A DNA stretch of 64,000 nt from Eledone cirrhosa. Lineage: Eukaryota. The DNA is taken from NCBI GenBank assembly GCA_964016885.1, contig OZ024755.1, positions 3,534,001-3,598,000 of the forward strand. Direction: 5' to 3'. Numbering within the stretch: the first letter of the stretch is position 1; every line of letters begins with the position of its first letter. Both the position numbers and the translations under genes were made by a program. The notes below the pieces were generated by a model. The model was not told the DNA's origin, did no database searches, and worked only from the letters and a program-made list of their open reading frames with translations. This document shows, in pieces, positions 11,594 to 11,784 of the stretch.

Positions 11594-11784
11594 GGAAAAA
11601 GTATGACCCCGACGGCAGAGCTCAAGCCGTTTCGATGGCTATTTCTGGACTCCAGAAATAGCCGTCGAAACGGCTTGAGCTCTGCCTCCGGGTCCTACTC
11701 GTTCCTATTTCCCACTCTACTACCCTAAGTATTGAGTACCCTGGTGCGTTATGGTCCATCTGGTTCCTTATCACAATTTCTTTG

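Follow-up and report, generated by a model that had tools for sequence, protein, structure and literature searches.

A conserved twin hairpin marks both ends of Hydra-clade Penelope-like element insertions in an Eledone cirrhosa genome and recurs in other taxa

The window, meaning the whole 64,000-nt stretch of Eledone cirrhosa DNA analysed here, is (TA)n-rich and comes from a genome of 3.0 Gb. Its elements are 175-430-bp pieces flanked by (TA)n runs, each made of an inverted arm and a one-sided extension, and several of them carry a hammerhead core upstream of a small hairpin on the same strand. The hairpin has a 4-bp lower stem (RCTC/GAGY), a 2-nt 3' bulge (TT, TC or TA), a freely covarying upper stem and a variable loop. 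In full-length elements there are two such hairpins, SL1 and SL2, in the 5' UTR, both downstream of the hammerhead. The family A insertion at 11590..11785 illustrates the layout: its inverted arm ends at site 1 and its direct arm passes through the tail to site 2, and the 5' half of the hammerhead is truncated in this copy. The features of the window are listed below.

11590..11785 (+): fold-back insertion of family A, flanked on both sides by (TA)n, which derives from the end of a Hydra-clade Penelope-like element and is linked to its full-length unit
11660..11693 (+): family A type I hammerhead, 3' half only, comprising a stem II strand, GAAA, stem III and the predicted cleavage site; assigned by eye against the full unit; no Rfam match
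11706..11713 (+): site 1, the TA-containing stretch 8 nt 5' of SL1, the terminus of the inverted arm and of copies without a tail
11714..11739 (+): SL1 of family A, with ACTC/GAGT lower stem, TAC/GTA upper stem and TT bulge, followed by AC (model match, fold)
11738..11785 (+): remaining 48 nt of the tail, up to site 2, which full-length copies place 6 nt ahead of SL2
10140..10160 (+): family E SL1, preceded by a hammerhead core (motif, covariance model)
32955..32976 (+): SL1 of family C (motif, covariance model)
32851..32891 (+): family C hammerhead core CTGATGA..GAAA, upstream of SL1 on the same strand
14593..14654 (+): family D SL1, its loop enlarged by a long insert (motif, covariance model, fold)
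16307..16344 (+): SL1 of family F (motif; missed by the covariance model)
15989..16044 (+): family F hammerhead core, parted from SL1 here by an inserted repeat
44275..44296 (-): SL1 of family G, an older family, upper stem TAC/GTA closed by TTCG (motif, covariance model)
8888..8935 (+): family B SL1, GCTC/GAGC stem, TC bulge (motif, covariance model)
49674..49705 (-): SL1 of a further family, absent from the earlier list, GCTC..TT GAGC ACT (covariance model)
7050..7082 (+): additional family A SL1 (covariance-model match including flanks)
13148..13183 (-): additional family A SL1 (motif, covariance model)
21577..21609 (+): additional family A SL1 (covariance model)
36770..36802 (+): additional family A SL1 (motif, covariance model)
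37651..37683 (+): additional family A SL1 (motif, covariance model)
41858..41890 (+): additional family A SL1 (motif, covariance model)
47935..47967 (-): additional family A SL1 (motif, covariance model)
57175..57207 (-): additional family A SL1 (covariance model)
61250..61282 (-): additional family A SL1 (motif, covariance model)
48234..48261 (+): additional family E SL1, hammerhead core at 48173-48195 (motif, covariance model)
12931..12958 (-): additional family E SL1 (motif, covariance model)
13431..13485 (+): additional family B SL1 (covariance model)
53376..53430 (-): additional family B SL1 (covariance model)
53562..53616 (+): additional family B SL1 (covariance model)

A sequence-only reading of the window had proposed that this stem-loop is shared across unrelated families, and the motif was present at every place it cited: in A, E, C, G (minus strand), D, F and, as GCTC..TC GAGC, in B. 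The motif was also commoner than in shuffled sequence: ACTC-N8-38-TTGAGTRC occurs 16 times in the window, whereas 100 shuffles yielded a mean of 0.23 and a maximum of 2; because the 16 matches are repeat copies, some of them overlapping, about seven families is the fair counting unit. The compensatory A-U to G-C change reported for family B was found at the first lower-stem pair (A-T to G-C). The stronger covariation lies not in the lower stem but in the upper stem, above the 2-nt 3' bulge, which reads TAC/GTA in A and G, CAA/TTG in C, CGT/ACG in D, TGC/GTA in E and CGT/ATG in F. A covariance model built solely from Hydra-element hairpins of other organisms found 21 sites in the window at 16-25 bits, with the next match at 10 bits, and recovered six of the seven cited places, missing family F at 16307. 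Local MFE folds were weak (-3 to -10 kcal/mol) and gave the full bulged hairpin in A, C, G, D and B, the lower stem alone in E, and another register in F.

We also ran a descriptor scan (lower stem RCTC/GAGY, upper stem of at least 3 bp) over 961 kb of this genome, comprising the window and 116 loci. The scan resulted in 251 matches with a 2-nt 3' bulge, 59 of them from family A, versus 202, 88, 121 and 92 for bulges of 0, 1, 3 and 4 nt. About 30 sequence clusters near (TA)n differed in their upper stems, for example TAC/GTA, CAA/TTG, CGT/ACG, CAG/CTG, GGA/TCC, TGTA/TACA and TGG/CCA. Since this list was chosen for pairing, covariation was assessed in separate tests.

Repeat finding in the raw window was swamped by (TA)n and was set aside. 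Among the best 150 of 416 rows, the whole-window Rfam scan returned microRNA-like noise and three tRNAs, and nothing else; the three near-identical tRNA matches, at 39692-39764 (-), 40131-40203 (-) and 44823-44895 (+), scored above the gathering score. A family G-like copy at 9915-9941 kept the right arm and upper stem and lost the ACTC left arm. The window also contains a SINE-like repeat of ~190 bp (16067-16258, 20240-20431, 39450-39637 and 44333-44479), one copy of which sits in family F and a 45-bp piece of which was amplified as a tandem array at 45869-46592, and a 460-bp self-inverted stretch with 72% identity at 50147-50603.

Upstream extension of family A led to identical copies and tandem arrays. 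In the C1 array, the family A unit measures 3,531 bp, adjacent units differ by one base, and a frame of 717 aa is open from the first Met. The family A pieces in the window are end fragments of a young Hydra-clade Penelope-like element (PLE) with an intact RT–GIY-YIG frame. The translation contains YRDD and then, near the C-terminus, VIYQC..YIG, that is, a C-terminal GIY-YIG. According to the Hydra-clade sections of PMC8557442, the clade features an RWK motif, a DKG to DKT change, a CxCx5C linker, CxxC and CxH in the endonuclease, and no CCHH. The family A protein has RWR and SDKTG and, by eye, CNCPDRSIC as the CxCx5C linker, CNLC as CxxC and CKH as CxH, without CCHH. Insertion into (TA)n was seen for 152 of 181 mapped 3' ends, which lie in TA runs. 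At 3,531 bp the unit exceeds the '<3 kb' given in the same sections as typical, not diagnostic, because its 3' UTR is 1.2 kb long. By eye and text comparison, published Hydra proteins clearly resemble the family A protein, which is 21-23% identical to other PLE ORFs of this genome. Pfam gave no match to the ORF at E<=0.05, and Rfam gave no relevant match to the UTR, hammerhead included, although very short hairpins could escape it.

By eye, A and B appear to have a type I hammerhead with a variant core; C, D, E and F carry a canonical core. The variant cores (L148:8705-8800, upstream in L363, and window 8813-8880) suggest a U3-A8 variant in A and show CAGAAGA in place of CTGANGA in B. In family A, the hairpin lies 8 nt past the unit boundary and ~25 nt past the predicted hammerhead cut, and the ATG follows 165 nt after it; 33 of 37 family A ORF starts are preceded by a hairpin at that place. 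The motif can be called a 3' stem-loop only from the standpoint of the truncated insertions; from that of the gene, its place is the 5' UTR.

Family B joins Hydra ORFs in loci L040, L363 and L365, and family C does so in L229, with a related subfamily doing the same in L087. Beyond the window, L082, L341 and L351 represent three further families that are joined to Hydra ORFs. The tie to PLEs suspected from the window was therefore borne out by A, B and C; the sharing of the motif among families stood, whereas their being unrelated did not, as these three lead into ORFs of one clade. For D, E, F and G, no ORF link was found in about 30 fetched copies each, and they are placed in the Hydra clade as candidates on hammerhead, layout and hairpin alone. 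Family F forms a tandem unit of ~1.3 kb with a hammerhead and without a Hydra match, and is apparently non-coding. Short tandem units with hammerhead core and hairpin, lacking a long ORF, were also seen in L086 (573-nt spacing) and L051 (690-nt spacing); these are candidate non-autonomous Hydra derivatives.

Other partners were tried and rejected. The GIY-YIG PLE families found with Pfam, about six in number, lacked the anchors in the 3' region of 16 of 16 loci, and among the families tested the motif is restricted to the Hydra clade (0 of 16 non-Hydra loci). A peptide resembling an RT thumb upstream in L093 turned out to be the antisense of the 3' UTR. A Naiad origin, raised by one Naiad_Mmer match, was dropped once A, B and C joined Hydra ORFs with a C-terminal endonuclease; in the Naiad_Mmer consensus (supplement of PMC8557442), there is one clean hairpin match ~150 nt after the stop, either by chance or as an inserted Hydra piece.

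Family A is very young. The array at C1:437198520-437214406 (L148-L150; also L151-L153) holds ~4.5 units that differ at 1 nt in 3,531; at least 150 ORF matches reach >=95% identity over the first 215 residues, many of them with open frames. Rolling-circle reverse transcription of circular RNA would fit these tandem arrays.

SL2 has the same form as SL1 and lies just past the tail end in read-through copies of A, B, F, L082, L341, L351 and L051; it is degenerate in one old C-related copy. Non-coding family F retains both hairpins. Solo insertions lack SL2 and site-1 arms lack SL1, and the window contains only SL1, because SL2 is not copied into solo insertions. One family F copy, L406, departs from other read-through copies ~110 nt past SL2 and not at a TA run.

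For validation outside this genome, we searched with the family A protein, which had 2,049 homologues at E<=1e-30 among 7,996 scored; an alignment of 42 of its homologues led to 77 metagenome and 20 genome-collection loci, presumably host DNA. The viral collection, also searched, yielded no relatives. Twenty loci of bacterial genome assemblies (L321-L340) carry Hydra-clade PLE ORFs, most likely through contamination from host animals. The external UTR set consisted of 53 loci with at least 95 nt upstream of the ORF, in which hairpins were picked by two anchors only and not by pairing. The motif recurred in PLEs of other organisms, with anchors in 46 of the 53 Hydra UTRs on the sense strand versus 7 on the antisense strand; a separate run gave 45 of 53 positive against a shuffle mean of 1.4 and a maximum of 6. 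Two hairpin copies, 55-83 nt apart, were present in 32 of the 53, at about -95 to -137 and -34 to -70 from the start codon. One of the seven anchor-negative UTRs, L316, has a TCTC/GAGA variant in both hairpins. Five external Hydra loci gave no relevant Rfam match, a search that very short hairpins could escape.

Pairing was tested in 52 non-redundant external hairpins. With a 2-nt bulge, the upper-stem positions U1-U3 paired at 0.96, 0.73 and 0.69 versus 0.74, 0.44 and 0.38 after permutation, values matched by 0 of 2,000 permutations; other bulge sizes stayed at chance. At U1, 33 hairpins have C-G and 17 have T-A; every Watson-Crick type occurs at both U2 and U3, and the wobbles at U2-U3 favour the sense strand (9 G-T versus 1 A-C). 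In the model-fitted alignment, which leans to structure, 97.9% of cells were paired and 119 double changes were counted versus 38 in shuffled data; a plain MAFFT alignment leaves the left arms unaligned and was excluded from the counts. On a 45-tip protein tree with a median identity of 48%, the minimum numbers of changes between Watson-Crick pair types at U1-U3 were 6, 8 and 7 for SL1 and 1, 4 and 9 for SL2. The lower stem hardly varies, and so is kept as sequence as much as structure. Predicted stability was low: over 51 external UTR folds, the lower stem had a mean ensemble probability of 0.70, and the first upper pair one of 0.33.

Within this genome, the anchor-only pairing test was significant over all 40 clusters (0, 4 and 1 of 2,000). 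The covariation asked for by the sequence-only reading was accordingly found in the external UTRs and over the 40 clusters taken together, but not at U1 and U2 of the 15 multi-copy clusters (608 and 250 of 2,000), several of which were anchored on the wrong ACTC. Its central claim, a conserved cis-acting fold common to the families, is upheld by the upper-stem pairing, the double changes and the external UTRs. The hairpin pair is a real, deeply conserved and clade-specific cis-acting feature marking both termini of Hydra-clade PLEs.

The suggested link to end formation was examined by mapping ends. In family A, 149 of 152 TA-flanked 3' ends lay 1–10 nt 5' of SL1 or SL2, using 2 of the 24 TA dinucleotides in the reference. 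The split was 65 at SL1 (mode -8) and 84 at SL2 (mode -6), counts that tail-containing queries, used to fetch many of the loci, bias towards site-2 ends and in which a few overlapping loci may appear twice. The same hairpin-adjacent positions held 52 of 56 family B ends; 13 of 13 ends of the L351 family were hairpin-adjacent, and 10 of 11 in the L341 family fell within 1-13 nt. Two end clusters were also seen in C, D and F, and the site-1 cluster in E. In a public run, possibly of the assembly's own sample, the two best-supported (AT)n loose ends lay 6 and 4 nt before SL1 and SL2, and depth was ~200-fold lower beyond SL2. Among 30 external loci with both regions present, an end falls 2-11 nt 5' of SL1 or SL2 in 12, one of which is at a contig end; another 10 continue into the ORF, and the remaining 8 stop elsewhere, mostly at contig ends.

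A TA-rich stretch lies ~6 nt 5' of each hairpin, with TA at -6 in 53% of 49 hairpins and TATA upstream in 55% versus downstream in 8%. The offset from end to hairpin differs by family (about 4-11 nt) and tracks the nearest TA stretch. In this genome, the end offset is 6-9 nt and the distance from SL1 to the ATG ranges from -125 to -187.

Among 109 fold-back insertions of six families, 106 combine one site-1 with one site-2 end, where 50% would be expected if the ends were independent; the exceptions are two insertions with two site-2 ends and one with two site-1 ends. Arm lengths could be compared in 107 pairs: the site-1 arm was longer by >25 nt in 29, the site-2 arm was longer in 8, and the arms were similar in 70, which fit two starts and fold-back copying alike. 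In the C1 array, the site-1 arm is at least 3,395 nt and the site-2 arm 207 nt. Because either arm may be far longer, the two arms were templated separately in the asymmetric cases. The fold-back axis of short family A insertions (11600-11699, 13193-13307 and 41737-41852) lies in or near hammerhead stem II, which suggests that two cDNAs stop at this self-complementary stretch and anneal through it. In L044 and L048, of a non-Hydra PLE family, a different perfect hairpin occurs ~10 nt after the first end, within the tail, and other PLE clades may have end-marking hairpins of their own.

Judging from the placement of the ends and by analogy with other systems, the hairpin likely serves to dock the RT on the sense RNA, so that two start sites are fixed, one for each broken DNA end. 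The GIY-YIG domain would cut both strands of a (TA)n run, and two RT molecules, possibly as a dimer, would bind SL1 and SL2 on an RNA of read-through, tandem or circular form. Each broken DNA end would then pair with the UA stretch 5' of one hairpin and prime a cDNA, and the two cDNAs, joined at their truncated ends, would yield an inverted repeat with a one-sided tail, the tail being the spacer from site 1 to site 2. The hairpin would be left behind because it sits 3' of its own start. As site-2 arms inherit SL1 alone and site-1 arms neither hairpin, only tandem or circularised templates would carry both signals. We more tentatively propose a twin RNA signal with a new geometry, in which two hairpins of identical function would load two RTs, priming both ends of the (TA)n break; the arrangement of the sequences makes this a serious possibility that we place a little short of probable. 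If true, a single mechanism would account for the PLE tail and inverted arm and for the requirement of a tandem or circular template, and a 25-nt hairpin with its UA pad would be a portable tag turning any RNA into a template.

Several other explanations were weighed against RT docking. The hairpin could be a cleavage signal, with the endonuclease or a host nuclease cutting RNA or ssDNA a few bases 5' and so giving the termini. Such a cut would account equally well for the end positions and the clade specificity, and the wobble pairs are compatible with DNA hairpins; the Hydra-clade sections of PMC8557442 attribute the tail to endonuclease-mediated resolution, and the D. virilis endonuclease needed tail sequence, as recounted in passages of PMC11167929. 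We nevertheless consider cleavage unlikely: an offset that varies over ~4-11 nt with the nearest TA stretch fits primer pairing more than a ruler cut, Poseidon start sites are internal on uncut RNA in the experiments described in PMC11167929, and a DNA cut at site 2 requires cDNA beyond SL2, of which solo insertions bear no trace. It is very improbable that site 2 is the sole true start and that the cDNA folds back, copying stalling at the SL1 hairpin in the cDNA to leave the inverted arm. This course predicts one end of each kind, as in the 106 of 109, and near-symmetric arms, as in the 70 of 107, and self-priming was proposed for Penelope palindromes in the available text of PMC3846280. However, a fold-back arm can be no longer than its template, yet the site-1 arm is the longer in the 29 pairs above, by kilobases in arrC1, arrC22, L153, L145, L123 and L093. 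It would also leave SL2, which is never copied, with an identical structure and offset that go unexplained. Arm lengths rule out pure fold-back copying for the long asymmetric insertions only.

A role in translation or transcription of the ORF, as a 5' UTR or promoter element, with the nearby ends reflecting TA-richness alone, would suit the conserved distances before the start codon in external elements. It is hard to reconcile with ends at 2 of 24 TA dinucleotides in the family A reference, with both hairpins being kept in a non-coding family, and with an ATG distance that varies far more in this genome than the end offset does; we hold it to be highly improbable. Shared ancestry or chance without any selected structure has next to nothing left to it. 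The families do share descent from one clade, their lower stem is almost invariant, and two of three positions were not significant in the multi-copy clusters of this genome, but pairing persists through repeated double changes between elements whose proteins are only ~48% identical and whose UTRs are otherwise unalignable.

The hairpin pair appears to be undescribed, as had been surmised: full-text literature searches and Rfam yielded no conserved twin hairpin beyond PLE ends, with subscription papers and Repbase notes outside their scope. In the available portions of PMC8557442, PMC3846280, PMC7229834, PMC4209133, PMC5737381 and bioRxiv 10.64898/2026.07.22.740005, no twin hairpin is mentioned, and the RNA signal was left unmapped in the in vitro PLE study as presented in the available text of PMC11167929. 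The Hydra clade, its hammerhead, the tail, two-site initiation and an RT-related bulged hairpin in LINEs (PMC1636434) are already known from the texts consulted; the conserved twin hairpin marking both ends of Hydra-clade insertions is apparently new here.

These results provide a 20-30-nt candidate signal, natural compensatory variants from dozens of elements and exact predicted starts. To our knowledge, the PLE tail and inverted arm, described for years, have had no explanation of their cause; with the young family A and its intact frames as test material, the origin of the tail becomes directly testable. PLE RTs are the closest relatives of telomerase, and how an RT is positioned on its RNA in PLEs bears on telomerase origins. 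Additionally, the motif offers a practical marker by which short non-coding repeats can be placed in the Hydra clade, the ORF of which escaped Pfam here.

As an analogy only, the hepadnavirus epsilon and the telomerase template-boundary element also position an RT on its RNA by a bulged or boundary stem. Priming at epsilon is protein-primed and occurs within the bulge, and the telomerase element, which is located 5' of the template, halts copying.

The closest comparison is with the Hydra clade itself, for which the sections of PMC8557442 on truncated copies describe the layout of inverted arm plus one-sided tail. The elements here agree with that account in ORF motifs, (TA)n targets, pLTR hammerhead, partial tandems, inverted 5'-truncated arm and one-sided tail, but differ in tail length, which is 70-140 nt here and 30-40 nt there. 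The word 'hairpin' has no occurrence in those passages. Among six published Hydra consensuses in the supplement, inspected by eye, a clean hairpin was found in Hydra-2_Amil, Hydra-2_Ajap and Hydra-1_Ajap, the last with both copies; Hydra-1_Crog has a near match, the hairpin of Hydra-1_Amil is degenerate, and Hydra-1_Obim is without a clean match.

In the anole Poseidon element PAc, as reported in the available text of PMC11167929, the RT starts at two internal sites bounding the tail, both target strands undergo cleavage and extension, the reaction requires RNA 3' of the start, targets are AT-rich and a dimer is predicted. PAc and family A are alike in having two fixed ends that bound the tail, with the difference that the PAc starts were shown in vitro and those here are predicted from insertion ends. 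PAc belongs to a different clade and has a start inside one AC-rich stem-loop in the ORF, whereas here the ends fall 5' of the hairpins; that text reports no conserved or duplicated structure for PAc.

Family F resembles the metazoan non-LTR retrozymes (PMC7229834; bioRxiv 10.64898/2026.07.22.740005, both in their available portions) in that it forms non-coding tandem units, apparently PLE-derived, that contain a type I hammerhead, but its ~1.3-kb unit is longer than typical retrozymes. Those portions name no cis signal for the partner RT, and 'hairpin' has no occurrence in them. The eel LINE UnaL2 and its partner SINE carry a small bulged RNA hairpin at the 3' end that is needed for retrotransposition, according to the available text of PMC1636434. 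UnaL2 and the present elements are alike in that a small bulged hairpin is common to autonomous and non-autonomous partners. The UnaL2 hairpin is single, lies inside the copied 3' tail and is inherited, whereas here there are two, 3' of the starts, that are left behind, and the enzyme, unlike that of the LINE, is a telomerase-related PLE RT.
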